A stretch of 64,000 nt of DNA from an uncultured Caldilineales bacterium (GTDB lineage Bacteria; Chloroflexota; Anaerolineae; JAAEKA01): NCBI GenBank assembly GCA_937907455.1, contig CALESQ010000111.1:21454-85453 (forward strand), written 5' to 3'. Shown here piece after piece: positions 2,456 to 54,684 of this stretch. Numbering within the stretch: the stretch's first letter is position 1; each line of letters begins with the position of its first letter. The position numbers and the translations under genes are program-made. The notes below the pieces were generated by a model. The model ran no database searches. It was not told where the DNA came from and was given only the letters and a program-made list of their open reading frames with translations.

Positions 2456-2631
2456 GGCCGGCCCGAATACGAAAAACGCCCCGCGAGAAGAAGGCTCTCG
2501 CGGGGCGCAGGGTTAGCGGTGGGTGTAGCGGCGCTCAAGGCGCTCAACGTTGTTCGTCGGCTACTCAGCCAGTATAGCACGCGACAGGACGGGTTGTCAA
2601 GACCCAAGTTTGAGTTACTCGAACTCGATAC

Positions 2632-2660
2632 TTGACAGATTTTGGTTATAGGTGTATAAT
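2632..2660 (+). promoter_or_regulatory. sigma70-type promoter, conserved cassette copy 1 (TTGACA-N17-TATAAT)
   Basis: TTGACA 2632-2637, TATAAT 2655-2660, followed by conserved TCCTTTGACGGTAGAGAGAGG block. Confidence 0.7.
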
Positions 2661-2713
2661 TCCTTTGACGGTAGAGAGAGGCCGCAGGGCCAACAGCCAA
2701 GGAGCGCACCCCC

Positions 2714-2899
2714 ATGAAACGCATCGCCACCGCAACGGCCAAAGCCTGGCCCCACACCTACACCTACCGGCTCTACCAGTTTGGCCCCCGGACCTTCGCC
2801 TGGATGGCCGGCAGCTTCCGGGTGAGCGGCCTGCCCAACTACCGCAACGCCGAAGCTGCGCTGGCTGCGGCCAAGGAGCTGGGCTGGACGATTGTCTAG
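2714..2899 (+). CDS. hypothetical phage early protein (61 aa)
   Basis: ORF track; RBS CAAGGAG 7 nt upstream. Confidence 0.6.
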   Translation: MKRIATATAKAWPHTYTYRLYQFGPRTFAWMAGSFRVSGLPNYRNAEAALAAAKELGWTIV

Positions 2900-2915
2900 C
2901 CGGCCGGCCGGCCCG

Positions 2916-2936
2916 AATCCGCAAAATTTGCGGATT
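2916..2936. promoter_or_regulatory. palindromic operator-like site (ATCCGCAAA-N1-TTTGCGGAT), copy 1
   Basis: gaatccgcaaaatttgcggattt between gene end and next RBS. Confidence 0.55.
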
Positions 2937-2959
2937 TGCCCAACAAGGAGACCTGACCC

Positions 2960-4804: not shown

Positions 4805-4833
4805 TTGACAGTTTTTGCTTTTGGGTGTATAAT
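4805..4833 (+). promoter_or_regulatory. conserved promoter cassette copy 2
   Basis: TTGACA 4805-4810, N17, TATAAT 4828-4833, then ACTCTTGACGGCACAGAGAGG. Confidence 0.7.
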
Positions 4834-4891
4834 ACTCTTGACGGCACAGAGAGGCCACACCGGCCATCACCCACAGCAAGGAGACCAGACG

Positions 4892-5272: not shown

Positions 5273-5509
5273 GCCCTGAACACAAACCCCGGTCCCGGAC
5301 AGCCCCGCCGCTCAAACGTAGCCAATCGTGCGACGCGGCGGGGCAGTGGACCGAGACACCGCCGTCGCTGGGTGTGTGCCCAGCCCGATGAAGCGAAAGC
5401 AGAAACGGCACCTTACCACCAGAATGAAGCGGCTGAATAACGAGGCGTCGGGACGCCTACACGTTGATTGATCCCAACGTGAGACTGCGCACCACTTGGA
5501 AATGACCAA

Positions 5510-5645
5510 GCCCGTGTAGCTCAAACGGCAGAGCAGCCACCAGCACTTACAGCCGGGCGATGATCCCTCCCGGACTAAGTAGAAGGCAAGCTGATCACTT
5601 GCTGGCTGAAATGGAAGGTTGGAAGTTCAAGTCCTCCCACGGGCA
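5510..5645 (+). ncRNA. tRNA-like element with a ~63-nt insertion in place of the anticodon arm (interrupted, intron-containing or degenerate tRNA)
   Basis: 7/7 acceptor pairing GCCCGTG (5510-5516) with CACGGGC (5638-5644); D-arm GCTC-AAACGGCA-GAGC (5519-5534); T-arm GGAAG-TTCAAGT-CCTCC (5621-5637, one mismatch); discriminator A; insert 5540-5602 folds into two hairpins (CCGGG..CCCGG; GCAAG-CTGATCA-CTTGC) closed by AGCCA/TGGCT. Confidence 0.35.
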
Positions 5646-5886
5646 GCGCGCAGTGTAGGCCGCAAAAACAGCAATCAATACGACAGTACCTTACCAACCT
5701 CACAACGCACCCGTCGCCCATCAACGGCGACGCCCCAGGCAGGAGCGCTGTCAGCGGGAAAACCGCTGAAGCTGCGGCGAAGCCGAAAGCCCGCCGGCCC
5801 AGCGCTCCGGGCCGAACCCCGATACCACGGTGGGCGCCGGGTTTGCCGGCGAGTGAGCGTGAGGACCAGCACAAGGAGACCGCCCC

Positions 5887-8603: not shown

Positions 8604-8610
8604 CCAGATT

Positions 8611-8639
8611 TGACAACTTTTGCTTTTGGGTGTATAATA
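8611..8639 (+). promoter_or_regulatory. conserved promoter cassette copy 3
   Basis: TTGACA 8611-8616, N17, TATAAT 8634-8639. Confidence 0.7.
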
Positions 8640-8661
8640 CTCTTGACGGTAAAGAGAAACC

Positions 8662-8684
8662 AAATCCGCAAATTTTGCGGATTT
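8662..8684. promoter_or_regulatory. palindromic operator-like site copy 2 (AAATCCGCAAATTTTGCGGATTT)
   Basis: perfect 23-bp palindrome between -10 and RBS. Confidence 0.6.
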
Positions 8685-8709
8685 GACCACCCAACAAGGA
8701 GATGCAACC

Positions 8710-11002: not shown

Positions 11003-11193
11003 CCCGCACCCGCTGCCCTGCCTGCGCCGGCAAGCTGACCCCGGTCGGCCCGCCGGCCAGGCACGGCGCCTTCCTCGACCAACTGCTCGACTGCCCGGCC
11101 TGCGGCTGGTGCAGCGTGGACTCGGAGATCGCCGACCCCGCCGCGCCGGCCCAGCCGGAGCAACTGGCCTTAAGGCTGGAAGTTGCATCTTGA
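10999..11193 (+). CDS. zinc-ribbon protein (64 aa, CPAC...CPACGWC)
   Basis: GTG start with GTGA overlap; ORF track. Confidence 0.5.
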   Translation: MTRTRCPACAGKLTPVGPPARHGAFLDQLLDCPACGWCSVDSEIADPAAPAQPEQLALRLEVAS

Positions 11194-11218
11194 CATGATT
11201 TGTTTTCGGTTGTAAACT
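11189..11218 (+). promoter_or_regulatory. promoter (TTGACA-N18-TAAACT), divergent variant of the cassette
   Basis: TTGACA 11189-11194, TAAACT 11213-11218. Confidence 0.45.
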
Positions 11219-22863: not shown

Positions 22864-23591
22864 TGCAATGCTCTCACTGTGGCAAGGCGATTAAACGGGA
22901 AGATTACCAGATTGCCCGTAACACGACGGGGCTTTGGTTTTGCTCTTACGACTGCCAAAAGTCCTACCGCAAAGCCAACACCATTGCGCCTGAGTTGACT
23001 TGTCCGGTGTGCGGAAAACAGTTCATTGTCAAACCCTACAGGGTGAAGCAAGGAAAACAGCTTGCTTGCTCGTTGGAATGTCGCCAAGTTCTGCTTGGCT
23101 GGGGTAGCAAGCTGCTCAACTGTGAATGGTGCGGACAAGAGTTTCGCCGTCGAAATGCCCAGGTGAACGGACACAACTTTTGCAGCCGTCATTGCATGGG
23201 ACAATGGCAGTCTGAATACGTCACGGGTGAACAAAGCCCAAGTTGGCGCGGTGGCTGGCAACCTTACTATGGCAAGGATTGGAACAAGCAAAACCGCCAA
23301 GCCCGCAAGCGAGACGACCACACCTGCCAGGGGTGCGGAGTTCATCAAAGTGAAATCGCCTATACCCTCGAAGTTCATCACAAGAAACCTGTGCGCCTTT
23401 TCGACAATCCCAACGATGCCAACTCGCTGGACAATCTCGTTACGCTTTGCCGTCCGTGTCACGTCAAGATGGACGTATACGCCCGTTGGCTATTCGACAA
23501 GAATGGGCGTGACACCAAGCCCGCTCATCCTCTCCAAAGTGACAGCGCAATAGCCAGGGTCTATCTCAATACCAAAACAGCGCCGTCCTAG
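22851..23591 (+). CDS. HNH homing-type endonuclease with N-terminal multi-CxxC zinc fingers; low-GC
   Basis: HNH motif DDHTCQGCGV..EVHHKKP..NLVTLCRPCH; own TTGTGC-N17-TACAAT promoter; 3' end overlaps convergent MTase by ~100 nt. Confidence 0.8.
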   Translation: MKHSLQCSHCGKAIKREDYQIARNTTGLWFCSYDCQKSYRKANTIAPELTCPVCGKQFIVKPYRVKQGKQLACSLECRQVLLGWGSKLLNCEWCGQEFRRRNAQVNGHNFCSRHCMGQWQSEYVTGEQSPSWRGGWQPYYGKDWNKQNRQARKRDDHTCQGCGVHQSEIAYTLEVHHKKPVRLFDNPNDANSLDNLVTLCRPCHVKMDVYARWLFDKNGRDTKPAHPLQSDSAIARVYLNTKTAPS

Positions 23592-24680
23592 TCTGTGCGC
23601 TGCGACCATTGTCGTGCCGCTGCCGAGGAAGGGATCGTAAACAATGCCGCCAACGCGCTTCACAAGATCAATGACCACGGCTTGCGGCTTGACGCTGGCG
23701 TGCCATCCTTCTGTGTCAGACAACTCTTGCCCAAGCGTCGTTGGTGAATAGCAGTCGTGAGAATACGGGTGTACGTCCAACCACTCCGCTTTCCCTTTAC
23801 TGCTGGCGCGGATGGCTTCTGAAGTCAGAAGCCATCCGCGCCAGGGGAAAGTCTCATCATTCGGCTTGTACATCCACAACAGCCGCTCAGGATGCCAGCC
23901 CGCCGCCCGCGTTGCGTCAAGCCACACCCATTCAAGCCGTGGTGACTGAAACGCAATCAGCACGCCGTCGTCAATCGGCATCGCAGCAAGGCACCCATCG
24001 AACAGCGCCCGCAGCCCTTCGGGATCGTCGTTTGTGATGCCCTCCCGATTGATGCCGTAGGGCGGATCAGTCACGCAACACCCTGCCTTCTCCCCGCCCA
24101 TCACTCGTGCCACCACCGCCGCGTCCGCGCAGTCGCCGCAGATCAGCCGGTGCTCGCCCAACTGCCACAGTTGCCCCGTGGCCGTTGACCACTTGGCTTG
24201 CAACTCCGCCGCCCGATTTACCTGCCCGCTGTCGTCCTCGCCGGCCGGCGCCTTGAGGCTGCGCAGCAACTCCTTCAGCCGCGCGTCCCCGCCAGCCGCC
24301 ACCGCCGCCAGCTCCTCGTCGGTCTCCTTGAGCTTCGCCACCAGCGCCGCCAGCCTGGCCAGGTCGGGGCTGGAGCCGCGCGCGGTCTCGTTGTCGGCGG
24401 CCATGTAGGCGACGACCTTCTCCGCCGTCCAGTCGGGCGGGATCACGTCGGCCTTGACCTCGGTCTTGCCTTCGGCCTGGGCCGCCTCGATAAAGCCGTG
24501 GCCGGCGACGCCGACGAAGCCGCCCTGGCCGTCGTCCAGCACCACGACGGAGCGAACCTGGCCGAACAGCCGGACCGACCGGCGTAGGTCGGCGATTTGC
24601 TCGTCCGGGTGCTCGTTGTAGTTGTCCGGGCTGGCCCGGTAGCGGTCGAGGGAGATGATGCGGTTGACGACTTCTGACAC
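23490..24680 (-). CDS. ParB-like nuclease domain fused to N4/N6 DNA methyltransferase (beta-class: DPPY then FLGSGTT)
   Basis: VTDPPYG motif IV; DPFLGSGTT motif I; N-terminal ParB-like region. Confidence 0.8.
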   Translation of the reverse strand: MSEVVNRIISLDRYRASPDNYNEHPDEQIADLRRSVRLFGQVRSVVVLDDGQGGFVGVAGHGFIEAAQAEGKTEVKADVIPPDWTAEKVVAYMAADNETARGSSPDLARLAALVAKLKETDEELAAVAAGGDARLKELLRSLKAPAGEDDSGQVNRAAELQAKWSTATGQLWQLGEHRLICGDCADAAVVARVMGGEKAGCCVTDPPYGINREGITNDDPEGLRALFDGCLAAMPIDDGVLIAFQSPRLEWVWLDATRAAGWHPERLLWMYKPNDETFPWRGWLLTSEAIRASSKGKAEWLDVHPYSHDCYSPTTLGQELSDTEGWHASVKPQAVVIDLVKRVGGIVYDPFLGSGTTMVAAHRLGRRCFGIEIDPGYCAVTLERMSGLGVTPILVE

Positions 24681-24694
24681 AGCGTTACTCCAGA

Positions 24695-24724
24695 CTTGAC
24701 AGCTTTTGCTTTTGGGTGTATAAT
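24695..24724 (+). promoter_or_regulatory. conserved promoter cassette copy 4
   Basis: TTGACA 24695-24700, TATAAT 24719-24724. Confidence 0.65.
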
Positions 24725-24748
24725 TCCCTTAGCAGTAGAGAACAAACC

Positions 24749-24771
24749 AAATCCGCAAATTTTGCGGATTT
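24749..24771. promoter_or_regulatory. palindromic operator-like site copy 3
   Basis: aaatccgcaaattttgcggattt upstream of parB-like RBS. Confidence 0.6.
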
Positions 24772-24793
24772 GCCCAGCAAGGAGGCACGACCC

Positions 24794-25693
24794 ATGACCG
24801 GCGAGCGCACCATCCAGCTAATCGACATGCAGCAGATCGTCCCTGGCGACAACGGCACCGGCCACCAAGATCGCACCGTCTTTGACCCGGCCGGCTTGGC
24901 CGAGTTAGCCGGCTCGATCCAGCAGCACGGCCTCTTGCAGCCCATCACCGTCCGGCCTATCGGCGAAAGCGACCTCTACCGCATCGTCGCCGGCGAGCGC
25001 CGCTTCCGGGCCTGCGAGCTGCTGGGCTGGCTGGAAATCCCGGCCATCGTGGCCGACGTGACCGCCGACGAGGCCGCGGCCCTGATGCTGGCCGAGAACA
25101 CGAGCCGGGAAGACCTCAACCCGGTGGACGAGGCCAACGCCTACCAGGTGCGCATCGAGCGCTTGGGCTGGACGGTGGCCGACTGCGCCAGAGCTGCCGG
25201 CGTGTCCGAGGCCCGTGTCTTGTTCCGGCTCAAGCTGCTCAAGCTGCGGCCCGACCTGCTGGACCTGGTGCGCACGGGCAACCTACCGCTGGGCTATGCG
25301 CAGATCATCGCCGACGGCAACCTGGACGTGAACCGCCAGCTCCTGGCCCTGCGGGCGCTGCGCAACAACCCGTCGCCTACGCCCGGTTGGTTCCGCCGCC
25401 AGGTGGGCGAGTTGCTGACCCAGCAGGCCCAGGCCAGCATGTTCGACGACGGGCCGCTGTTCGGCGGGCTGGACTTCGACGAGCCGGCCCAGCACGCCAC
25501 GCCCATCGAACCGCCCACGCCGGCCACGGTCGCGCCGCCGGCAGTAGGGCAGACGCCCAGGGAGATCGTCGCCGGCCAGATAGGCTTCTGGGAACAGGCC
25601 GCCGACGCTTGGGCTGATCTGGGCAAGCCGTTCAAGCGCCAAGAGTGTAAGGCGGCAGCCCAAGCGCTGGGGTTCCTGTTTGCCACGCTCTGA
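24794..25693 (+). CDS. ParB/Sulfiredoxin-domain protein (ParB-like nuclease/partition protein)
   Basis: ATG 24794 after CAAGGAGGCACGACC; ParB N-domain motifs LQPITVRP..YRIVAGERRFRA. Confidence 0.75.
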   Translation: MTGERTIQLIDMQQIVPGDNGTGHQDRTVFDPAGLAELAGSIQQHGLLQPITVRPIGESDLYRIVAGERRFRACELLGWLEIPAIVADVTADEAAALMLAENTSREDLNPVDEANAYQVRIERLGWTVADCARAAGVSEARVLFRLKLLKLRPDLLDLVRTGNLPLGYAQIIADGNLDVNRQLLALRALRNNPSPTPGWFRRQVGELLTQQAQASMFDDGPLFGGLDFDEPAQHATPIEPPTPATVAPPAVGQTPREIVAGQIGFWEQAADAWADLGKPFKRQECKAAAQALGFLFATL

Positions 25694-29994: not shown

Positions 29995-31272
29995 CTAAAG
30001 GGAAGCGCGCAAAAGACTGTAGTCGTATCCATCACTGCGCTGTAGTAGCGTAAGGTGTTTGTGGTGTACGCTGAAACCGCTAAGAGAAAAAAACGGTGAT
30101 CGACGGATAGTTATCCTACCAACATGCGTACCTGTATGCTTGCCTCTTGGCACAACCGCCTTCACGATGTCACCGGTCTGGTAGCCAAGGTAGCGCTTCT
30201 CATTCCCGCGGTGGCGCTTGGGGAAACCGTACTTGTCAGTTTGGCACATCTGGCGCGTGCCACGTCCGGTCGCCTTGATGCGTAATACCTGCATCTCAGG
30301 GTTCAGCATCACACCCAACCCCGATATACCCACGCACGCCGCGTCGATCCAATGCGCTTTGGGATAGCCGTTTTCGTGCCGGTTCCGGGCGGTACGGCCA
30401 CCGCTGCCCCACTCGACGCGCAGGCCGGTTTGACCAAGCGCGTCAGCGAGGGCGTTACGAGTCGTGTTGACTGATGCCGCATCTCTGAGTGGCTTCTTCA
30501 CTTGCCGCTCGATATTGGCCGCCTTCTCTGGCCCGACGAAGACCTCCAGCCGCTGGTTGCCGCGCTTCTGGTTGCACTCATAGCAGGCCCAGGCCAGATT
30601 GTCGATGCGGTCGGAACCGCCGAGGCTGCGAGGGGTGATGTGCTCGATGGTTCCCCGCACTGCCGGCCGCGCGCCGCAGTAGATGCAGGTGTGGTTGAAC
30701 TTGTGCAGCAGATACTCGCGCACCTCCGTACCTTGCAAGGTGCCCTGTTGGTACTCTACGCCGCTGATCTCCGGGTTGCGCATCGCCTGCACGTCGAACT
30801 TGACGCGCTCTAGGCTGATCATGCTGACTGGCGCAAAACGGCGCAGCCTGCCGACCCAGGTCATTACGCTGTCCACCTTGCTGCGCATCGACGGCGCCAA
30901 CCATCCTTGAAGGCGACGGCGGTTGTCAAAACGAGCGGGGCGGTAGCGGGTCTTGCGGTTGCGCCGGCCGCGCCGCAGTTGCCGTCGCGCTGTCATCTTG
31001 TTAGCCACGTTGGTACGGTGCTGCAACTCAGCAGCCCAGACAACTTCGCCGTTGGTTACAACAGCCAAGCCAGTTTGTTTGCTGCCGGGGTCGATCTTGA
31101 CCTGGACCGGCTGCACGTCGCCATTTTTTCGGTCGTGTAGGATAATGGTAAAAGGGTAGCGCCTGTAGACGCTGGCCCGCCCACTCTTGAGGAGTTCTCG
31201 CGCCCGTGCTGGGTGGCAGGGCATCAGGGGTTTACGGTTCGTATCTAGTACGAAAACTGAGTTTTGTTTCAT
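29995..31272 (-). CDS. iscB: IscB-family RNA-guided nuclease (OMEGA / proto-Cas9; PLMP, RuvC-I/II/III, Arg-rich bridge helix, HNH)
   Basis: NRKPLMPCHPARA (PLMP); KIDPGSKQTGLAVV (RuvC-I); RRQLRRGRRNRKTRYRPARFDNRRR; CIYCG..HITPRSLGGSDRIDNLAWACYECNQKRGN (HNH); HWIDAACVG (RuvC-III); 425 aa. Confidence 0.85.
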   Translation of the reverse strand: MKQNSVFVLDTNRKPLMPCHPARARELLKSGRASVYRRYPFTIILHDRKNGDVQPVQVKIDPGSKQTGLAVVTNGEVVWAAELQHRTNVANKMTARRQLRRGRRNRKTRYRPARFDNRRRLQGWLAPSMRSKVDSVMTWVGRLRRFAPVSMISLERVKFDVQAMRNPEISGVEYQQGTLQGTEVREYLLHKFNHTCIYCGARPAVRGTIEHITPRSLGGSDRIDNLAWACYECNQKRGNQRLEVFVGPEKAANIERQVKKPLRDAASVNTTRNALADALGQTGLRVEWGSGGRTARNRHENGYPKAHWIDAACVGISGLGVMLNPEMQVLRIKATGRGTRQMCQTDKYGFPKRHRGNEKRYLGYQTGDIVKAVVPRGKHTGTHVGRITIRRSPFFSLSGFSVHHKHLTLLQRSDGYDYSLLRASL

Positions 31273-31508
31273 CTTACGATGAACTCACCTTTCGGTGGTA
31301 ACGGTCTCCTCGACAATGTTATCCGAAGGTTTTCGACCAACGCACTGGCTTAACCACTTCACCTGTTTAACGTTGGCCCGCAGAGCGTGGGGCTGGAGAA
31401 GCACCCCACGGTGCCTGTATCATTCTTCGGTAACGTAGCCCGATGGACCTTGCGGCCCCTTGCTGTGTCTGGTTTCACGTCTCCTGTGCGGATTGTCAAG
31501 ACTGCGAG
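31273..31508 (-). ncRNA. omega-RNA/tracrRNA-like scaffold: anti-repeat (plus coords 31472-31508) joined to a ~200-nt structured leader directly upstream of the iscB start
   Basis: 31472-31508 is an imperfect reverse complement (~29/38) of the CRISPR repeat; non-coding, 236 nt; position matches IscB omega-RNA architecture. Confidence 0.5.
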
Positions 31509-31535
31509 TTGTCCATGTTTCGCCTACGTCTTTGC

Positions 31536-31785
31536 GCTCTCAGTCTAGACAACCCGCACAGGCGTGGGTGAAACCTACGTGACCCGAAAAAGGCGGCGCG
31601 CGCCAAGCGGCTCTCAGTCTAGACAACCCGCACAGGCGTGGGTGAAACCTATGCTATCCAGAAAAGCGCGGGCCGCTGCAATGTCTCTCAGTCTAGACAA
31701 CCCGCACAGGCGTGGGTGAAACCGGGCACCAAGTACGATCTAACCAACCTCTCAGTCTAGACAACCCACACAGGCATGGGTAAAA
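31536..31785 (-). CRISPR. CRISPR mini-array: 4 repeats of 38 bp (4th degenerate), spacers 36, 36 and 26 bp
   Basis: repeat CTCTCAGTCTAGACAACCCGCACAGGCGTGGGTGAAAC at 31536, 31610, 31684, 31748 (last has 3 mismatches); spacers unique. Confidence 0.8.
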
Positions 31786-31891: not shown

Positions 31892-32176
31892 TTACCCCAA
31901 ATCCACGCCAGTTACCTCCCCGCGCGCAATCGTAATCTCCGTGAAGATTTGCCGCAATAGCGCGTTGGCCTCCGTCACCGGCGCCGCCAGCAGTCGCTCC
32001 TCCAGGGTGGGCAAGACTTCCGCCAACAGCGCCAGCCGCCCCGCGCGTCGGCGCACCCGGCCGGCCGCGTCGCGCAAGCGCTGAAGCTCCCCTTCCACCT
32101 GGGCCACCTGCGTCGCCGTCTCCCGCTCCCGCGCGTCGAACTCCTCCAGGCTGATGCGGGCGGTCTCGAACAGCAA
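31892..32176 (-). CDS. hypothetical coiled-coil protein (94 aa)
   Basis: ORF track. Confidence 0.35.
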   Translation of the reverse strand: MLFETARISLEEFDARERETATQVAQVEGELQRLRDAAGRVRRRAGRLALLAEVLPTLEERLLAAPVTEANALLRQIFTEITIARGEVTGVDLG

Positions 32177-32317
32177 GATCAGCCGGCCGCGCCGTTCGGT
32201 CAGGCCGGCCAGCTCGCGCGCCAGCGACTCCGCCCGGTCGGCGCCGGCCAGAGGCGGCGGCGCGTCGTCCGGCGTATACTCAGCCAGGATCAGGCGCAGG
32301 TACGTCGAACTTCAGAT

Positions 32318-32346
32318 TTGACAGAGTACGTTATAGTCGCTATAAT
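32318..32346 (+). promoter_or_regulatory. perfect consensus promoter TTGACA-N17-TATAAT
   Basis: TTGACA 32318-32323, TATAAT 32341-32346. Confidence 0.7.
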
Positions 32347-33334: not shown

Positions 33335-33592
33335 ATGACCTGCGTCGCTGACAACACCCACGCCTTCATCTCCCCTGGCGCCTTCGAGATCGACGGCAAG
33401 GTCCGTGACGGCCTTATCACCGCCACCCGCTGGGAGGAGGGACGGCTGGAGATCGTCATCCAGCCCCTGTTCCAACTGCCCCACCCCATCGAGATCAGAG
33501 TTCTCCTGGACGACGCTGACCTGGCCAGTGTCAACACCCTGCTGCGCCAGCAAGTGAACGAGGAGGAGGTCGCCGATGATCAAGCCGCGTAG
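33335..33592 (+). CDS. hypothetical protein (85 aa)
   Basis: ATG 33335 after AGGAGCG. Confidence 0.5.
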   Translation: MTCVADNTHAFISPGAFEIDGKVRDGLITATRWEEGRLEIVIQPLFQLPHPIEIRVLLDDADLASVNTLLRQQVNEEEVADDQAA

Positions 33593-34550
33593 AACCCCCA
33601 TCATTCTCTCCCAGACCACCACCGCACAGGACGACGTGGCCGTGGTGCTGGGCCGCGCGCCGGCGCAGGAAATCATCGCCCCGTTCAGCTACGAGGAGTT
33701 GGATCCGGAGACCCGCATCGTCGCCCGCCAGGCCGCCAGCGAGATCAAGACGCTGATGCGGCAGACAGCCCAGGGCGTGATGGACATCGGCCAGCGCCTG
33801 ATCGAAGTCAAGGAGCGCCTGCCCCACGGGCGCTTCGGCAGCTGGCTGCACCAGGAGTTTCAGTGGTCGGAGCGCACGGCGCACAACTTCATGGCCGTGG
33901 CGCACAGCTTCAAATCCGCAAATTTTGCGGATTTGAGCATCGCCCCGTCGGCCCTCTACGCGCTGGCCGGCCCGTCGGTGCCGGCGGCGGCCCGCCAGGA
34001 GGCTGTCCAGCGCGCGACCAACGGCCAGGCCGTCACCCACAAGCAGGCCCGCCAGATCGTCGCCCAGCACCGGCCGGCGCCGACTCCCAAGCCCAAGCCG
34101 GCCCCGGTCGCCGCGCCGGCTGAGGAGACGCCCGACAGCCCCTACACCGTCGTGGTTTCCTGGCTGGCCGGCCGCTTCGGCAACGACAACCAGCGCCTGT
34201 TTGCGGTGCGGGAGTTGCTCAACCAAAAGACCAAGAGCCAATACTGGCCCAGCATCGCCCGCCTGCTGCCCGGCGTCAGCGAAAGCGACGCGCTGATGGT
34301 GCTGGATGCGGTAAGGGCCGACCTGGAGGGCAGCGCGCCGGCCACGCCCAGGGCGCCGCTGCCGGCTGCCCGCGTCACCTTTGCCCCGCCGCCGGCCGCG
34401 CGCCAGCCCAGCGCCGAGGAGCGCCTGGAGAGCCTGCGCCGCCGGCTGGCCGACGTGCTGCTCCTGCCCCACACCGCCAGCGACGACGAGTTGGTCGAGG
34501 CCGTTGAGACGGTGGTCGCAGCCTGGCGATTGAACGAGGCCGGCCAATGA
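33576..34550 (+). CDS. DUF3102-like DNA-binding protein (plasmid/phage partition-associated), Pro/Ala-rich C-terminal half
   Basis: GRFGSWLHQEFQWSERTAHNFMAVAHSF; AGGAGGAGG RBS; operator palindrome lies inside the coding sequence (33912-33934). Confidence 0.6.
   Translation: MIKPRRTPIILSQTTTAQDDVAVVLGRAPAQEIIAPFSYEELDPETRIVARQAASEIKTLMRQTAQGVMDIGQRLIEVKERLPHGRFGSWLHQEFQWSERTAHNFMAVAHSFKSANFADLSIAPSALYALAGPSVPAAARQEAVQRATNGQAVTHKQARQIVAQHRPAPTPKPKPAPVAAPAEETPDSPYTVVVSWLAGRFGNDNQRLFAVRELLNQKTKSQYWPSIARLLPGVSESDALMVLDAVRADLEGSAPATPRAPLPAARVTFAPPPAARQPSAEERLESLRRRLADVLLLPHTASDDELVEAVETVVAAWRLNEAGQ
33912..33934. promoter_or_regulatory. palindromic operator-like site copy 4 (intragenic)
   Basis: aaatccgcaaattttgcggattt encoding KSANFADL. 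Confidence 0.5.
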
Positions 34551-39029: not shown

Positions 39030-39396
39030 GCACTGGCGCATGGCCCTCTTCGTGGCCGGCATGATCGTTCTGGCTCCCCTGCTCGCGCTGGGCCTGCTGC
39101 GGCTCGCGCACTTCCTGGCCATCAACGCCCTGGCCCGCCTCACTATGCGGCCTGGCGTGCGTTACGAGGGCTGGCGTTGGCGCCGGGTGCGCGCCTACGT
39201 CATCGACCGGGACCACGGCAAGTGCGTGCGCTGCGGCCGGCGCTACCGGCTGATGCACGTCCACCACCGGCTCCCCGTGGCGCGCGGCGGGTCGCACCAG
39301 ACGTGGAACCTGGAGACGCGCTGCTACGAGTGCCACCGGGATGAGCACGCGTGGATGCCCGAAACTGGCCCATCAAATAGCTTGACAATCCGGTGA
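39022..39396 (+). CDS. HNH endonuclease with N-terminal TM segment (124 aa)
   Basis: GTG start after GGAGG; DHGKCVRCG..HVHHRLPVARGG..NLETRCYECH. Confidence 0.65.
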   Translation: MFEHWRMALFVAGMIVLAPLLALGLLRLAHFLAINALARLTMRPGVRYEGWRWRRVRAYVIDRDHGKCVRCGRRYRLMHVHHRLPVARGGSHQTWNLETRCYECHRDEHAWMPETGPSNSLTIR

Positions 39397-39410
39397 TAAT
39401 AGGTTATAAT
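39382..39410 (+). promoter_or_regulatory. promoter TTGACA-N17-TATAAT upstream of RHH gene
   Basis: TTGACA 39382-39387, TATAAT 39405-39410. Confidence 0.65.
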
Positions 39411-44679: not shown

Positions 44680-45363
44680 ATGATCAAGCTGACCCACGCT
44701 TCGCGCGGCTCCGAGTTGTACCAAGTCGTTTCTGATTACGTGCGCGAGCGCCACTACCTGCACACCATGCCCGATCCGCGGGCAACGCCTGAGACGTTTA
44801 TTGTTTGGTTGCCGTCCGGCCTGGCCGGCGTCCTGGTCTTCAGCCGCCCGGAGGCCACCCGCTGCGCTGATTGGTACGGCAGTGTTGACGATGCAGCCGC
44901 CGGCCGCTGCGACTCCACGCGCTGGCAGGTTCTCAACCTGGCCCGCGTTTGGATCGCGCCGCGCTACCAGGCCGGTGGGGAATTGTATGAGCCTGCGCAT
45001 GTACCCGGCTACACCGACCGGCGCGGTCGCTTCCGCTCAACGCTGGCCAGCGCAATTCTGCGCACCGCCATCGACCACATCGGCTATGAGTACCTGCTTT
45101 TGCGCCCGCCCTGCTTTCTGGAGGAGCCGTACCGCATCCGTTGGCTGCTGTCCTACTGCGACACTCGCCTGCATCGCGGCGTGATTTATGCCGCTGCCGG
45201 CTTTGAACTTTACAAGACCAACCCCAAAGGCATCCAGACCTGGCGCATTCGCCTGCCCGACCTAACTGCTCAGCAGGATGCCGCCATTCGCCTGGCCGCT
45301 GAGCGCCACCCCCGGTCTATCGCCTACCGCGGCCAGCGCGCGCAGATGGCGCTAGGAATCTGA
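44680..45363 (+). CDS. hypothetical protein (227 aa); possibly GNAT-fold / Mom-like (very tentative)
   Basis: ATG 44680 after GGAGACGG; motifs ERHYLH, RVWIAP, HRGVIYAAAGFE. Confidence 0.5.
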   Translation: MIKLTHASRGSELYQVVSDYVRERHYLHTMPDPRATPETFIVWLPSGLAGVLVFSRPEATRCADWYGSVDDAAAGRCDSTRWQVLNLARVWIAPRYQAGGELYEPAHVPGYTDRRGRFRSTLASAILRTAIDHIGYEYLLLRPPCFLEEPYRIRWLLSYCDTRLHRGVIYAAAGFELYKTNPKGIQTWRIRLPDLTAQQDAAIRLAAERHPRSIAYRGQRAQMALGI

Positions 45364-45657
45364 TTGCGTGGCCAGCTCTATGATGCGCTTCACTACCGCC
45401 CGCCATTGCTCCGGCACTGCATCCAGGTCTAGCGGCCGGCCCGGATCATCGGTTATCCCGTACAGAAAATCGGTAGTCGTCTCGCAGGCCAGAGCGATAG
45501 CCGGGGCATATTTGCCCAGCCCCTGGCGGCCTGTCTCGATGTCGGAGATGGTTATGGGCCGGTGGCTGAGGCCGACCCGCTCGGCGAGCTGAACCTGCGT
45601 CAGGCCGGCCCGCTCTCGGACAATCCGAACCCGCTGGGCGGTGATAGGTAGCGACAT
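45352..45657 (-). CDS. XRE-family (CI/Cro-like) HTH transcriptional repressor
   Basis: rc ATG 45655-45657 after AGGAAG; RVRIVRERAGLTQVQLAERVGLSHRPITISDIETG. Confidence 0.75.
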   Translation of the reverse strand: MSLPITAQRVRIVRERAGLTQVQLAERVGLSHRPITISDIETGRQGLGKYAPAIALACETTTDFLYGITDDPGRPLDLDAVPEQWRAVVKRIIELATQSDS

Positions 45658-45681: not shown

Positions 45682-45710
45682 TTGACAAGATAGCGTTTTG
45701 GGTGTATTAT
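45682..45710 (+). promoter_or_regulatory. promoter TTGACA-N17-TATTAT within divergent repressor/early switch region
   Basis: TTGACA 45682-45687, TATTAT 45705-45710; minus-strand TATAAT overlaps. Confidence 0.6.
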
Positions 45711-46348: not shown

Positions 46349-46845
46349 GCCGCTACCGCCCGCCCGCCAAAGAGGACCCGAACGCCTGGATGCTGGCCGA
46401 CATCGACAAGTACCTGGCGCCGACCGACCCGCACAGCGCCAGCTACGTCCCGCAGTCCCGCTACCTGGGCGGTGACTACCGGCAGATCAAGGCCGCCGAG
46501 CTGGACCGCTTCCCCGGCCGCGTCACCCGCATCGACCTGGTGACGACTGAGCACGGACCAGTCAAGCGTTGCTGGCGGGCCGGCTGGATGCCCGGCGACA
46601 AGGCGCTGACCCAGGACGTGGGTCGGCTGGCTGCCGGCTGGACCGTCGAGAGCGCTGCCGACAAGCTGGTCGCCGACGGCTGGACCGTCCGGCGTTGGCC
46701 CGGCGGCGCCAGAGCCTGGCGCATCGCCGCCCGTCCGGTGCGCACTGGAGAATGGGCTGCTCGCTTTCGCGACCGCCTGCTGGCCAACCCGCCGGCAGAG
46801 CTGGCTGGACGGGTAGGCAGCTTCGACAAGTACCTGGGTTTGTAA
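46345..46845 (+). CDS. hypothetical protein (166 aa)
   Basis: ORF track. Confidence 0.55.
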   Translation: MSRYRPPAKEDPNAWMLADIDKYLAPTDPHSASYVPQSRYLGGDYRQIKAAELDRFPGRVTRIDLVTTEHGPVKRCWRAGWMPGDKALTQDVGRLAAGWTVESAADKLVADGWTVRRWPGGARAWRIAARPVRTGEWAARFRDRLLANPPAELAGRVGSFDKYLGL

Positions 46846-46866
46846 ATCCGCAAATTTTGCGGATTT
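46844..46866. promoter_or_regulatory. palindromic operator-like site copy 5
   Basis: aaatccgcaaattttgcggattt immediately before CAAGGAGACC RBS of 46891 gene. Confidence 0.6.
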
Positions 46867-46890: not shown

Positions 46891-47790
46891 ATGACTACCG
46901 ACAACGCCCCAGACTGGGCATTCCTGGCCCAAACGATAGCCAGTATTGACGTTTCGCTCAAGACCATTGCCGACTACGTGCAGCTCTTGCACATCGAGAA
47001 GACCGGCGAGAAAACCTGGGAAGTTCAGCGCTTCGTCGTCGGAGCAGACGGAGAGGACCAGCCGTGCGTGTGGCTCTACGCGACGCACCCCGGCATCGAG
47101 TTCGCCGTCACCCGCATCTACCACGAGCGCATTGCCGACCTGCCCCTGACCATACCCGCCAACGCCAAGGTCTGGGATGGCGAGGTAGCACCTAGCGCAG
47201 AGGCCGCCGCCAAGAAGGGCTACTTCTACGTGGCGCCGGCACCGTTCACTATTAGCCTTATGCCGACCGGCAAGAAGACCGACGCCGGCCAGGACATCCG
47301 CCGCTTCAGCCGGGTTCTCTCGGTAGGAGAGCCTTCCCGCAACCCGGCCGGCAAGGCACCGGCGCAGCCGGCCAGCAACCGGGCCGCCAAGGATGAAGAG
47401 GACGCGGCGCACGCCGCGTACCTGGCCGGCCAGCGCCCGCCGGCCCCTCCTGCCACCAGCGAGGAACCTTCGCCTTGGTCCGCTGAGGCCGAGTTCGAGC
47501 ATCTCCCCTCTGCCGCGCAAGCCCCGGCCCAGGCCCACGCGCTGGCCCAGGCTGCTGCCAGTCGGCCCGCACCGACCCCCGCCGGCGAGTTGCCCTTCAA
47601 GGACCAAGGGACCGCTGTCAAGTGGGCGGTCGGTTTTGCCCACTACCAGAAAAAGGACGGTAGCCCTGACTTCCCGCACGCAGTAGGATCGCACGCAGAT
47701 TTGTGCAAGCGACTGGGCTGCAACGACAAGGCCCTGGACCGCTGGGGCCAGGCGTGGCTGAAACACGTCCAGGAGCGCGCCGGTAACTAA
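46891..47790 (+). CDS. hypothetical protein (299 aa) with Ala/Pro-rich central linker
   Basis: ORF track. Confidence 0.6.
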   Translation: MTTDNAPDWAFLAQTIASIDVSLKTIADYVQLLHIEKTGEKTWEVQRFVVGADGEDQPCVWLYATHPGIEFAVTRIYHERIADLPLTIPANAKVWDGEVAPSAEAAAKKGYFYVAPAPFTISLMPTGKKTDAGQDIRRFSRVLSVGEPSRNPAGKAPAQPASNRAAKDEEDAAHAAYLAGQRPPAPPATSEEPSPWSAEAEFEHLPSAAQAPAQAHALAQAAASRPAPTPAGELPFKDQGTAVKWAVGFAHYQKKDGSPDFPHAVGSHADLCKRLGCNDKALDRWGQAWLKHVQERAGN

Positions 47791-50634: not shown

Positions 50635-50970
50635 TTGCAGCGCATCTATCCAGTCGTGCAGCGCTGGGACGTGCTGTACTACCGCAAGCACCCCTGCCAC
50701 ATCCTGCGCGCCAGCCGGCGCGATCCGCTGGCCTTTGACTACACCGGCATGGACGAGTCCAAGGTCATCGCACAGGCTGCGCGTATCGAGGACTATGCCG
50801 TGCTGGGCGATTTCTGCATGGGCCAGGGGCTGGTCGGCTTGGCCGCCTGGGATGCCGGCAACCCCTTTGTTGGCACGGAACTCAACCCGCGCCGCCTGGC
50901 CGTGCTGTTGCAGAAGCTGGCAAAACGAGGCGCACCCGTTGGGCACGAATCGGTCGATGTTGATACTTGA
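50635..50970 (+). CDS. hypothetical protein (111 aa)
   Basis: ORF track; its 3' end overlaps the promoter cassette. Confidence 0.4.
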   Translation: MQRIYPVVQRWDVLYYRKHPCHILRASRRDPLAFDYTGMDESKVIAQAARIEDYAVLGDFCMGQGLVGLAAWDAGNPFVGTELNPRRLAVLLQKLAKRGAPVGHESVDVDT

Positions 50971-50995
50971 CAAGTTTTGATTATAGGTGTATAAT
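50967..50995 (+). promoter_or_regulatory. conserved promoter cassette copy 5
   Basis: TTGACA 50967-50972, TATAAT 50990-50995, ACTCTTGACGGTAGAGATTAAACACCC. Confidence 0.7.
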
Positions 50996-51056
50996 ACTCT
51001 TGACGGTAGAGATTAAACACCCACCGGGCCACGGCCCACAGCACAAGGAGAACATC

Positions 51057-52563: not shown

Positions 52564-52592
52564 TTGACAAGATTTGATTTTGGGTGTATAAT
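52564..52592 (+). promoter_or_regulatory. conserved promoter cassette copy 6
   Basis: TTGACA 52564-52569, TATAAT 52587-52592. Confidence 0.7.
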
Positions 52593-52655
52593 ACTCTTGA
52601 AGGTAGAGATTAAACACCCACCGGGCCACGGCCCACAGCACAAGGAGAAACGACC

Positions 52656-53492: not shown

Positions 53493-53527
53493 CCCGCCAA
53501 ATCCGCAAATTTTGCGGATTTGGCGGG
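53493..53527. promoter_or_regulatory. extended 35-bp perfect palindrome containing operator copy 6
   Basis: CCCGCCAAATCCGCAAATTTTGCGGATTTGGCGGG. Confidence 0.6.
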
Positions 53528-53542
53528 CAAGGAGATGACGCC

Positions 53543-53830
53543 ATGTATCGCATCTACATCAAAGCAAACGACGCACCCACTGACCGCAAGCACCTGGTGG
53601 TGAAAGATTACCACTACCAGTACAGCGCCAACACGGTCAAATACGCGTGGCACTTGGCCGACATACTGGTCGATAACTTCAACGTCCGCAGCATCAAGAG
53701 CGGCAGCGCCGACCGGGCCAGCCTGATGCCCAGAGCGCGGCGAGACGTGGCGCTATCCAAGCTCGTCCCGGCGTCTCCGCACCTGATCGGCCACGCAGGA
53801 GACCGAACAATCGTCGTGGAGAGGATTTGA
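53543..53830 (+). CDS. hypothetical protein (95 aa)
   Basis: ATG 53543 after GGCAAGGAGATGACGCC. Confidence 0.5.
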   Translation: MYRIYIKANDAPTDRKHLVVKDYHYQYSANTVKYAWHLADILVDNFNVRSIKSGSADRASLMPRARRDVALSKLVPASPHLIGHAGDRTIVVERI

Positions 53831-54069: not shown

Positions 54070-54260
54070 AACGTACCTGCAACGGATGCAAGGCATTGAT
54101 CCAGGGAGAAAACCCGCCGACTTGTCTTCTGGGCTACGCTCAAGTCTACAGCTACCCAAGTCACGAGGAGCACTACGTCCGGCCAGCCGGCCCGGAAAAC
54201 TGCCCTAAACCTACCACCTACTCCGATTTGCTATTCTGGCAAAGACAGCCAGGTCACTGA
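54066..54260 (+). CDS. zinc-ribbon protein (64 aa)
   Basis: ORF track; CNGC..C and CPKP motifs. Confidence 0.45.
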   Translation: MKRTCNGCKALIQGENPPTCLLGYAQVYSYPSHEEHYVRPAGPENCPKPTTYSDLLFWQRQPGH

Positions 54261-54528
54261 ACCCCAGGAAGCCCGCCACGAGTAAGCGAACATACAGCTA
54301 TCGCTGGTGCTATGTCTGTGGGTGTGATGTCAGCGCGGCGGGTGCTGCGTGGGCTGCGCACTGCAAGATGCACGTCAAAGAAGGCAAGATGGTTGCGCTC
54401 CCGTACTATCACCGCACGCGATATGAACCAGCGCCAGGAGTGCCCATCATACCACCGCAAAAACGTCAACCAGCCTAGCCCTTTCCTCACCGGGCGCGGC
54501 GGTGTCCCGGCCCCTGACGACCGCCGAT

Positions 54529-54551
54529 CAAATCCGCAAATTTTGCGACTT
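54529..54551. promoter_or_regulatory. degenerate operator copy 7 followed by an orphan RBS and an ATG-TAA start-stop
   Basis: aaatccgcaaattttgcgacttt; CAAGGAGGCCCGCC then ATGTAA at 54565-54570. Confidence 0.4.
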
Positions 54552-54596
54552 TACCAACCAAGGAGGCCCGCCATGTAACGCCCACCGTTCCACCGC

Positions 54597-54634
54597 ACAA
54601 AAGCCCCGGCTTGTGTCGAGCCGGGGCTTTTGCT
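54597..54634. terminator. bidirectional rho-independent terminator between convergent plus and minus blocks
   Basis: AAAAGCCCCGGCT-TGTGTCG-AGCCGGGGCTTTT. Confidence 0.75.
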
Positions 54635-54684
54635 TGGAGTGGGATCACGCTCCCTTCTGGCCTCGCTTACGCCTGGCCAAGCGC

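Follow-up and report, generated by a model that had tools for sequence, protein, structure and literature searches.

The DNA analyzed here, a 64,000-nt stretch of contig CALESQ010000111.1 from an uncultured Caldilineales bacterium (hereafter the window), is phage-like, has a GC content of ~64%, and carries two families of dispersed repeats, namely near-identical promoter cassettes and a 23-bp palindrome (AAATCCGCAAATTTTGCGGATTT), one copy of which lies inside a gene encoding a protein of the DUF3102 family. A palindrome with covarying arms occurs at the same place within DUF3102 genes across the family. Based on the positions of the repeats and on this family-wide link, it is proposed, with a probability of about 0.5, that the palindrome is the cognate site of the DUF3102 protein of the phage, which would repress a subset of non-structural genes by acting as a roadblock to RNA polymerase, and that the cassettes resemble the promoter-early stem-loop (PeSL) elements of T4-type phages. 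Binding by DUF3102 itself, recognition of DNA rather than RNA, and the repressive effect are all proposed from sequence comparison. It is also plausible that one sequence-specific factor reads all of the palindrome copies.

Palindrome copies in the window

Exact copies of AAATCCGCAAATTTTGCGGATTT were found at 8662, 24749, 33912, 46844, and 53499, together with a near-exact copy at 2915 and a degenerate one at 54530, and shuffled sequences gave an expectation of 0 matches by chance; the seven copies listed in the original prediction are all present. Four copies stretch to CAAAT...ATTTG or beyond, and the 27-bp duplex form of the site is TCAAATCCGCAAATTTTGCGGATTTGA. The copies are as follows, with positions relative to the cassettes (described below) assuming a transcription start ~7 nt after the -10 hexamer.

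2915-2937, unstranded: palindrome with A at the center and G as its first base, between a stop codon (2897-2899) and a Shine-Dalgarno (SD) sequence (2945-2950).
8661-8685, unstranded: 25-bp palindrome, CAAAT...ATTTG, at about +16 to +40 of cassette 3, with an SD 11 nt downstream.
24748-24772, unstranded: 25-bp palindrome at about +17 to +41 of cassette 4, with the parB SD 7 nt downstream.
33910-33936, unstranded: intragenic 27-bp palindrome, TCAAAT...ATTTGA, encoding K113-L120 of the DUF3102 protein.
46844-46866, unstranded: palindrome overlapping the upstream stop codon, with the SD of gene 46891-47790 10 nt downstream.
53493-53527, unstranded: 35-bp perfect dyad, ending directly upstream of the SD of gene 53543-53830.
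54530-54552, unstranded: degenerate palindrome with two right-arm mismatches, followed by an SD and a start-stop ATG-TAA.

Each of the six extra (non-intragenic) copies lies 6-14 nt upstream of an AAGGAG ribosome-binding site. The extension of the 53493 copy to a perfect 35-bp palindrome had been described correctly, as had the placement of the 2916, 46844, and 53493 copies before a ribosome-binding site without an adjacent cassette. Three copies had been placed between a cassette and a ribosome-binding site; those at 8662 and 24749 are so located, but upstream of the copy at 54530 (54529 in the original prediction) there is neither a cassette nor a promoter within two mismatches of the consensus. 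A motif search over the whole phage genome had also been suggested. The scan covered the window and ~10.6 kb of structural-gene DNA elsewhere in the same genome, together all but positions 47338-73761 (26 kb) of the matching metagenome record described below; it confirmed the copies in the window and recovered no further cassette or palindrome in the ~10.6 kb outside it.

Two of the copies show signs of variation. In L196, a near-identical contig from a sister sample, positions 271-293 correspond to window positions 2915-2937 and the right arm reads TTAGCGG in place of TTTGCGG; owing to this point change, the 2915 copy is regarded as polymorphic in the population. The degenerate copy lies in a gene-free interval of ~600 nt (54070-54684), at the junction of a + strand block and the - strand structural block, which also holds the SD, the ATG-TAA (54574-54579), and a bidirectional terminator (54598-54632) and which may represent the decayed start of a gene or a minimal open reading frame (ORF).

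A covarying palindrome embedded in DUF3102 genes

33576-34550, + strand: DUF3102 (PF11300) gene, ~1.2 kb downstream of a perfect promoter at 32318; proposed binder of the palindrome.

As the original prediction had noted, the 33912 copy lies inside the DUF3102 gene. The encoded protein matches PF11300 at residues 52-116 with 47.8 bits (gathering cut-off 24.4; E = 2e-12), and PF11300 is present in 31 of 31 homologues, some DUF3102 homologues being fused to Dam-type methyltransferases (PF05869). The same 21-mer was found inside the DUF3102 homologue of IMG/VR contigs that otherwise share nothing with the window, and the exact palindrome lies inside DUF3102 genes of a planctomycete metagenome-assembled genome, an alphaproteobacterial one, and at least 16 metagenome contigs. 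The center base of the intragenic site takes all four values, giving Asn or Lys, and the arms keep AT-ending codons, which are rare in these GC-rich genomes.

An unbiased sample of 80 IMG/VR loci, comprising 56 non-redundant genes, was assembled by means of the peptide VK[EDA]xL[GP]HGx[FW], a motif that precedes the site by ~35 codons and is unrelated to the palindrome. A palindrome score of at least 8 was obtained at one offset (103-111 nt) in 29 of the 56 homologues, as against 5 of 280 control windows in the same genes, and the intragenic copy of the window, located at offset 103, has a score of 13. In 24 of the 56 genes, no more than 1% of synonymous re-encodings with the codon usage of the gene itself attain the score. 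A DUF3102-linked palindrome class is defined here as a 23-24 bp dyad, AAAW...WTTT, at an offset of ~103-111 nt after the VKxxLxHG motif. The outer ends of these dyads are constant (CAAAW...WTTTG, with 23 or 24 bp from AAAW to WTTT) and the inner arm bases covary between lineages, the arm variants being CCGCAAA, CGGCAAA, CGGACAC, CCGAACC, CGGAAAT, and TTCAACAGC. The encoded peptide varies as well (KSANFADL, KTANFADL, KTEIISDL, KSDTVSDL, and PNSSTYSNL), and so does the codon phase.

The same covariation is found among the closest relatives. In the following, the labels L032, L037, L040, L071, L117, L132, L133, L163, L181-L183, L190, L191, L196, and L202 denote the compared relatives and loci. 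Within the phage group of the window, three specificities occur, namely CCGCAAA (window and L037), CGGCAAA (L040), and CGGAAAT (L202); the right-arm change in L040 is synonymous, and the palindrome of L202 was predicted from the peptide KTEIISDL before it was found in the L202 DNA. The Streptococcus phages CHPC642 and Javan623 possess AAATTCGAGTAC|GTACTCGAATTT at the same spot, in the gene just after a cro-like gene. Because the position is fixed and the arms covary, with the peptide and the codon phase differing, the palindrome is taken to be under selection as a nucleic-acid element, with the protein sequence at this point secondary to it, and it offers a clear case of a DNA element dictating the amino-acid sequence of a protein loop. 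Judged from these comparisons, the intragenic copy appears to be the ancestral, family-defining copy and not an oddity.

The site lies just after a helix-turn-helix (HTH)-like helix (W-S-E-R-T-A-x-N-F-M-x-V-A) and encodes a variable loop. In the AlphaFold model, the N-domain is all-helical (predicted local distance difference test 86-90) and the site-encoded residues lie in a loop that joins helices. Where the sites of close relatives differ, their HTH-like helices do so too (WSERTAHNFMAVAHSF, WSERTARNFMAVTRQF, and WSDRTARSFMAAARSF), and this tracking of helix and site differences is suggestive only. A literature search found DUF3102 mentioned, with no functional study of it, and found the palindrome sequences in no paper; the link between the DUF3102 family and an embedded covarying palindrome thus appears to be undescribed so far.

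In the window, L071, L117, L132, L133, and L163, extra copies are present that agree with the intragenic variant of the same genome. In L071, an extra 89-residue gene lies between two copies of a unit that consists of the palindrome, an SD, and ATGAC.AC.GAC, and in L117 the extra site is located between a terminator and a -35 hexamer. In L190 and L191, whose ParB is 90% identical to that of the window, the 25-bp site in the parB leader is intact (center T to A) and the promoter spacer and leader have diverged; retention of the arms despite diverging flanks points to purifying selection on this site. Clusters of other dyads of the family type were also encountered. About five different ones lie within 200 bp at 2690-2900 of L133, an intergenic region ~7 kb upstream of the DUF3102 gene, and arrays of two to three different CAAAW...WTTTG dyads were found in CI-like genes (HTH and Peptidase_S24) at 4918-5040 of L181 and at 5421-5505 of L182 and L183. 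The latter arrays fall in the part of the gene coding for the inter-domain linker, and the DUF3102 genes of these contigs are without the intragenic site; in L181 and L182, the array-bearing gene is on the opposite strand to the DUF3102 gene.

Candidate binding proteins

24794-25693, + strand: ParB-like gene with ParB_N and HTH_ParB domains and a GERRFRA motif; probably a target of the palindrome system rather than the binder.
45352-45657, - strand: XRE-family HTH gene (HTH_31/HTH_3); a candidate reader that found no support.

The XRE-family, ParB-like, and DUF3102 proteins had been put forward as candidate repressors in the original prediction. Only DUF3102, whose genes contain the site in dozens of elements with no other relation to one another, emerges as its constant companion: among 79 DUF3102 loci, a ParB-like match lies within ~10 kb in 2 and an XRE match in 1. 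No conserved partner gene was found beside DUF3102, the upstream and downstream neighbors being heterogeneous (PcfJ-like, 6/48; ParA, 2/48; ORF6C, 4/49).

A role of the ParB-like protein as a global repressor of the KorB kind, or as a centromere binder, that loads at the dispersed palindromes and silences the cassette promoters appears improbable. The protein possesses ParB_N and HTH_ParB domains and a GxxRxxA CTP-binding box (GERRFRA), its gene has both a cassette and a palindrome, and KorB of RK2 uses 12 dispersed palindromic operators (PMC11790492). However, parB orthologues at 79%, 73%, and 71% identity keep the strong promoter and have no palindrome, and 77 of the 79 DUF3102 loci are without a ParB-like match, and on these two grounds the protein is judged a poor candidate for the binder. 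In addition, over the 36 kb read of a 102-kb relative, the palindrome variant is confined to DUF3102, and no parA gene adjoins the parB-like gene. A ParB-based search of IMG/VR gave no matches. Still less probable, and hardly to be expected, is a repressor role for the XRE-family protein, which is a clear HTH_31/HTH_3 protein encoded beside divergent promoters; its own control region contains no copy, the nearest being 1.2 kb off, an XRE homologue occurs in 1 of the 79 DUF3102 loci, and L037 retains the XRE gene and its promoter, yet has only the intragenic site in that range. It is likewise judged a poor candidate.

Promoter cassettes

Six perfect TTGACA-17 nt-TATAAT sites, which are sequence-predicted promoters, occur on the + strand at 2632, 4805, 8610, 24696, 50967, and 52564 and share a spacer (..TTTTGcTTTTGGGTG) and a post -10 block (ACTCTTGACGGTAGAGA) in a unit of ~55 bp. 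As shuffled controls gave 0 expected matches, the six near-identical cassettes and two variants of the original prediction are borne out at about the positions given there. The TTGACA-N17 promoter stands, although TGGGTG, which had been listed as an additional element, is part of the 17-nt spacer, and conservation past the -10 hexamer likewise stands except at cassette 4, where the block has diverged. The post -10 block, for which the original prediction had considered a role as a second operator, was never found apart from the promoter and is not kept at the orthologous parB promoter of L032. In a sigma-70 consensus test, all 12 hexamer positions agreed at eight sites, namely the six cassettes and two others; every one of them is on the + strand, and the - strand has no such site. 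The two further promoters (32318-32346 and 39382-39410, + strand), which the original prediction had missed, have spacers unrelated to those of the cassettes, and both are kept in L037.

2632-2677, + strand: cassette 1, TTGACA-17-TATAAT with the post -10 block, divergent from a - strand promoter at 2600-2571.
4805-4850, + strand: cassette 2, with perfect sigma-70 hexamers.
8610-8655, + strand: cassette 3, followed by the palindrome at 8661-8685.
24696-24741, + strand: cassette 4, predicted to drive the isolated parB-like gene; post -10 block diverged; kept in L190, L191, and L032.
50967-51012, + strand: cassette 5, leader type TTAAACACCCACCGGGCCACGGCCCACAGCACAAGGAG.
52564-52609, + strand: cassette 6, near-duplicate of cassette 5 from ~25 nt upstream of the -35 through the ribosome-binding site.
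45682-45710, + strand: variant promoter with TATTAT and TTTTGGGTGTAT, divergent from the XRE gene; kept in L037.
11190-11218, + strand: degenerate variant promoter, TTGACA-17-TAAACT.

Three leader types are joined to the cassettes, namely a small GGCC hairpin (2632 and 4805), the palindrome (8610 and 24696), and TTAAACACCCACCGGGCCACGGCCCACAGCAC (50967 and 52564). Cassettes 5 and 6 form a duplication where the relative L040 holds a single copy. The leader GGGCCACGGCCCACAGCACAAGGAGA (51013-51045 and 52610-52645) is also present at ~18230-18270 of L040, where the promoter differs, and may be a separate leader element. A search of IMG/VR with the cassette pattern gave only three single, unrelated matches. 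Since just two of the six cassettes carry a palindrome and three good palindrome copies have no promoter beside them, the two families are regarded as separable modules, and the single regulon of all cassette promoters envisaged in the original prediction finds no support. Both kinds of element are confined to two + strand blocks (2.7-14.5 kb and 32.3-53.8 kb) of small, mostly unknown, non-structural genes or to the lone + strand parB-like gene, which sits inside a - strand block. In the annotation of uncultured phages, such modules would mark transcription-unit boundaries and gene-shuffling hot spots.

Proposed mechanism and alternative explanations

A possible course of regulation can be outlined. 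The DUF3102 protein would be made early from the perfect promoter at 32318, would dimerize on the double-stranded palindromes, and would obstruct RNA polymerase at three kinds of location: close to a promoter, at +16 to +41 of cassettes 8610 and 24696 (parB); inside operons, at 2915, 46844, and 53499, where it would form a roadblock much as mycobacteriophage stoperators do; and within the DUF3102 gene, where the block would be autoregulatory. The outcome could be negative feedback or a timed shut-off of some of the non-structural genes, parB among them. In this lineage, the site may have been copied from its intragenic location to six leader or intercistronic positions, and the cassettes, together with the alternative leaders and the AAGGAG ribosome-binding site, may constitute duplicated regulatory modules where genes are inserted or lost.

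More tentatively, DUF3102 proteins could be widespread and so far undescribed DNA-binding regulators of phages and mobile elements whose own-ORF site co-diversifies with the protein and has here been turned into genome-wide roadblock operators that also control the ParB-like gene. If this were so, the site recognized by any member of the family could be deduced from the sequence of its gene, and a domain of unknown function distributed from Streptococcus to planctomycetes would gain a first functional hypothesis, one that can be tested at little cost. The swaps of specificity among close relatives (window, CCGCAAA; L040, CGGCAAA; L202, CGGAAAT) would serve as a ready-made experiment.

Several observations weigh against the proposed roadblock. 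Most elements of the family contain the intragenic copy only; the complete 35.7-kb genome of Streptococcus phage CHPC642 has a single, intragenic copy, and in the 102-kb relative a palindrome variant was found inside DUF3102 only across the 36 kb read. Because most members have the intragenic site only, the primary function of the family may not be operon control, and because a single intragenic copy is usual elsewhere, dispersal to six leader positions would be a trait of this lineage, added to a family-wide autogenous site. Comparison of the DUF3102 fold with solved DNA-binding proteins gave no significant match; since the fold thus has no significant solved relative, we infer DNA binding from the HTH-like sequence motif and from an association of the genetic kind. 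No promoter is near the copies at 2915, 46844, and 53499, which are intercistronic. Finally, all six extra copies are on the transcribed strand of + strand units at a near-constant place by the ribosome-binding site, and they are predicted to fold into stable RNA hairpins, with energies from -14 to -35 kcal/mol and z-scores between -2 and -6, that leave the SD free.

The last of these points also fits the main rival explanation, in which the palindrome acts as an mRNA hairpin upstream of the ribosome-binding site and the intragenic copy as an autoregulatory mRNA site. Such an RNA element, which could stabilize the 5' end, offer a processing site to RNase III or RNase E, serve as a translational operator (perhaps with DUF3102 as its ligand), or act as a weak attenuator, is considered unlikely, although more probable than any other alternative discussed here. 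Besides the constant placement 6-14 nt before AAGGAG and the stable hairpins with an unpaired SD, the covariation of the arms would agree with it, and the copy read on the - strand from 8688 to 8658 scores as terminator-like, a T-rich tail being present only there. However, among 29 arm mismatches over 32 family palindromes, sense-strand G.U pairs are not enriched (5, equal to the 5 A.C), and the commonest mismatch, A/A at the degenerate W position (11), is ordinary degeneracy in a DNA half-site and a break in an RNA stem. No U-tract is present on the + strand and Rfam contains no family covering the leaders; moreover, the extra site of L117 lies between a terminator and a -35 hexamer, and the arrays of L181 and L182 are in a gene opposite in strand to the DUF3102 gene. 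The center base flips freely among copies and relatives. The mismatch pattern, the L117 site, the opposite-strand arrays, and the missing + strand U-tract favor a double-stranded DNA site for a dimer.

An intrinsic terminator on the + strand was considered and rejected, since the stem has 4 G-C pairs of ~11 and the + strand tail, UUUG(A/C)CC, includes only three U, and since the evident terminators of the phage, such as that at 54598-54632, differ. Approximately 50 exact palindrome matches in AT-rich contigs (Clostridia and Bacteroidales) were set aside as unrelated look-alikes, namely terminators of the A5-stem-T5 kind.

Somewhat less probable than the RNA element is a non-transcriptional role, in which the palindromes are loading or marking sites for replication initiation, for segregation, or for the recruitment of adjacent DNA methyltransferases, and their placement beside ribosome-binding sites is a by-product of module duplication. 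The location of a site within the gene of its own binder is the arrangement known for lambda O/ori and spo0J/parS, some DUF3102 homologues are fused to Dam-type methyltransferases (PF05869), the L163 gene follows a ParA gene, and in the window and its relatives the neighborhood of the DUF3102 gene contains replication and methylase genes. On the other hand, ParA is adjacent in only 2 of 48 loci, the Streptococcus phages have separate annotated replication initiators, and known origins have iterons and an AT-rich tract, which a single 23-bp dyad lacks. The exact leader placement kept in L190, L191, and L071 suggests a link to expression.

Very unlikely, in turn, is the explanation that the intergenic copies are mere recombination scars or linkers of module shuffling with no regulatory activity. 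In its favor, the module of L071 is duplicated around an inserted gene, for which the PeSL elements offer a precedent (PMC2839356), the 54530 copy is decaying, and the 2915 copy is polymorphic, as judged from L196. However, the arms are perfect at five sites and are kept in L190 and L191 despite the divergence of the flanks, and the copies stay identical to the intragenic variant of their own genome.

Relation to known systems

In B. subtilis, parS is located within spo0J, and in phage lambda, ori is located within gene O, so that the site is embedded in the linker-coding region of its binder and the specificity is lineage-specific. The DUF3102 system would be analogous in that the cognate site lies inside the coding sequence of the proposed binder, but DUF3102 is related to neither ParB nor O, the site is a single dyad without iterons, and DUF3102 loci show no constant ParA or replication partner. 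Phage phiC31 is reported, in work of the 1990s by Ingham, Smith, and co-workers, to have a similar family of early promoters, with highly conserved inverted repeats (CIRs) that serve as repressor operators, found in many intergenic regions as well as near the repressor gene. Unlike the present palindromes, the CIRs are 17-bp dyads read by a different repressor family, and we know of no family-wide site within a coding sequence among them.

The stoperators of Cluster A mycobacteriophages, studied with L5 gp71 and the TipsytheTRex repressor, are many sites for a single repressor that lie in short intra-operon intergenic spaces, mostly away from promoters; the bound repressor halts elongating RNA polymerase, and even closely related phages differ in the specificity of both site and repressor (PMC9283540, PMC6550527). 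The copies at 2915, 46844, 53499, and 54530 resemble them in their location in short intra-operon intergenic spaces away from promoters. In contrast, stoperators are 13-bp asymmetric and orientation-dependent sites of a monomeric immunity repressor and number ~30, whereas here there are seven copies of a symmetric 23-27 bp dyad, the roadblock is putative, DUF3102 is unrelated to gp71, and the defining copy is in the ORF of the proposed binder. Next to the mycobacteriophage stoperators, the palindromes could represent another, unrelated case of operators dispersed within operons.

The PeSL elements of T4-type phages combine a strong sigma-70-like promoter, a stem-loop, and an SD/ATG upstream of small ORFans, and recombination between them inserts or deletes genes (PMC2839356, PMC4122927). 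The present cassettes are similar in having a strong promoter and a 3' SD/ATG before small unknown ORFs, and copies likewise flank insertions and deletions, such as the extra gene of L071 and cassettes 5 and 6 as against the single copy of L040. The phage of the window, however, is an uncultured phage that is not T4-like, and PeSL stem-loops are terminators with G/C runs at variable positions, whereas the palindrome lies downstream of the -10, has no U-tract, and is tied to a protein family. KorB of RK2 (IncP) acts at dispersed palindromic OB operators located at various distances from promoters, is autoregulated, and controls partition-type genes (PMC11790492). The dispersal of one palindromic site over a mobile genome is common to both systems, but KorB is a CTPase clamp of the ParB family, whereas here the site and the ParB-like protein do not co-occur, and the palindrome is unlike OB in sequence.

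Phage genome and additional observations

A near-identity search against 50,697 GenBank phages found no close relative of the window. The Joint Genome Institute (JGI) metagenome contig Ga0181821_1000926 (101,006 bp), the record to which the scan of further DNA refers, matches it in circularly permuted form (window position x = record position x + 81048, modulo the contig). Because the window spans the ends of this contig, a complete circular or terminally redundant genome of ~101 kb is suggested.

In L037 (6434-8625) and L040 (427-2438), a large serine integrase and a CI-like HTH repressor adjoin the perfect promoter that heads the DUF3102 operon. The corresponding interval of the window (31892-32320) contains an unrelated 94-residue ORF and no integrase, for which reason the phage may have lost or replaced its lysogeny module.

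A HEARO RNA (Rfam RF02033, 103 bits) was found at 31298-31574 on the - strand, directly upstream of the gene for an RRXRR and HNH protein (29995-31272, - strand), and the pair constitutes a phage-borne IscB-type OMEGA nuclease with its guide RNA; nearby in L037, a TnpB-like gene (OrfB_IS605) takes the place of this system. At 5510-5645 on the + strand, in an ORF-free gap (5273-5886), Rfam gave a tRNA match of 38.6 bits over 136 nt, in which ARAGORN detected no tRNA; this may be a tRNA with an intron or an element that resembles a tRNA. A 34-bp near-perfect palindrome (CGCGGATGGCTTCTGA AG TCAGAAGCCATCCGCG) lies at 23807-23840 inside the - strand ORF of an N6_N4 methyltransferase (23490-24680).

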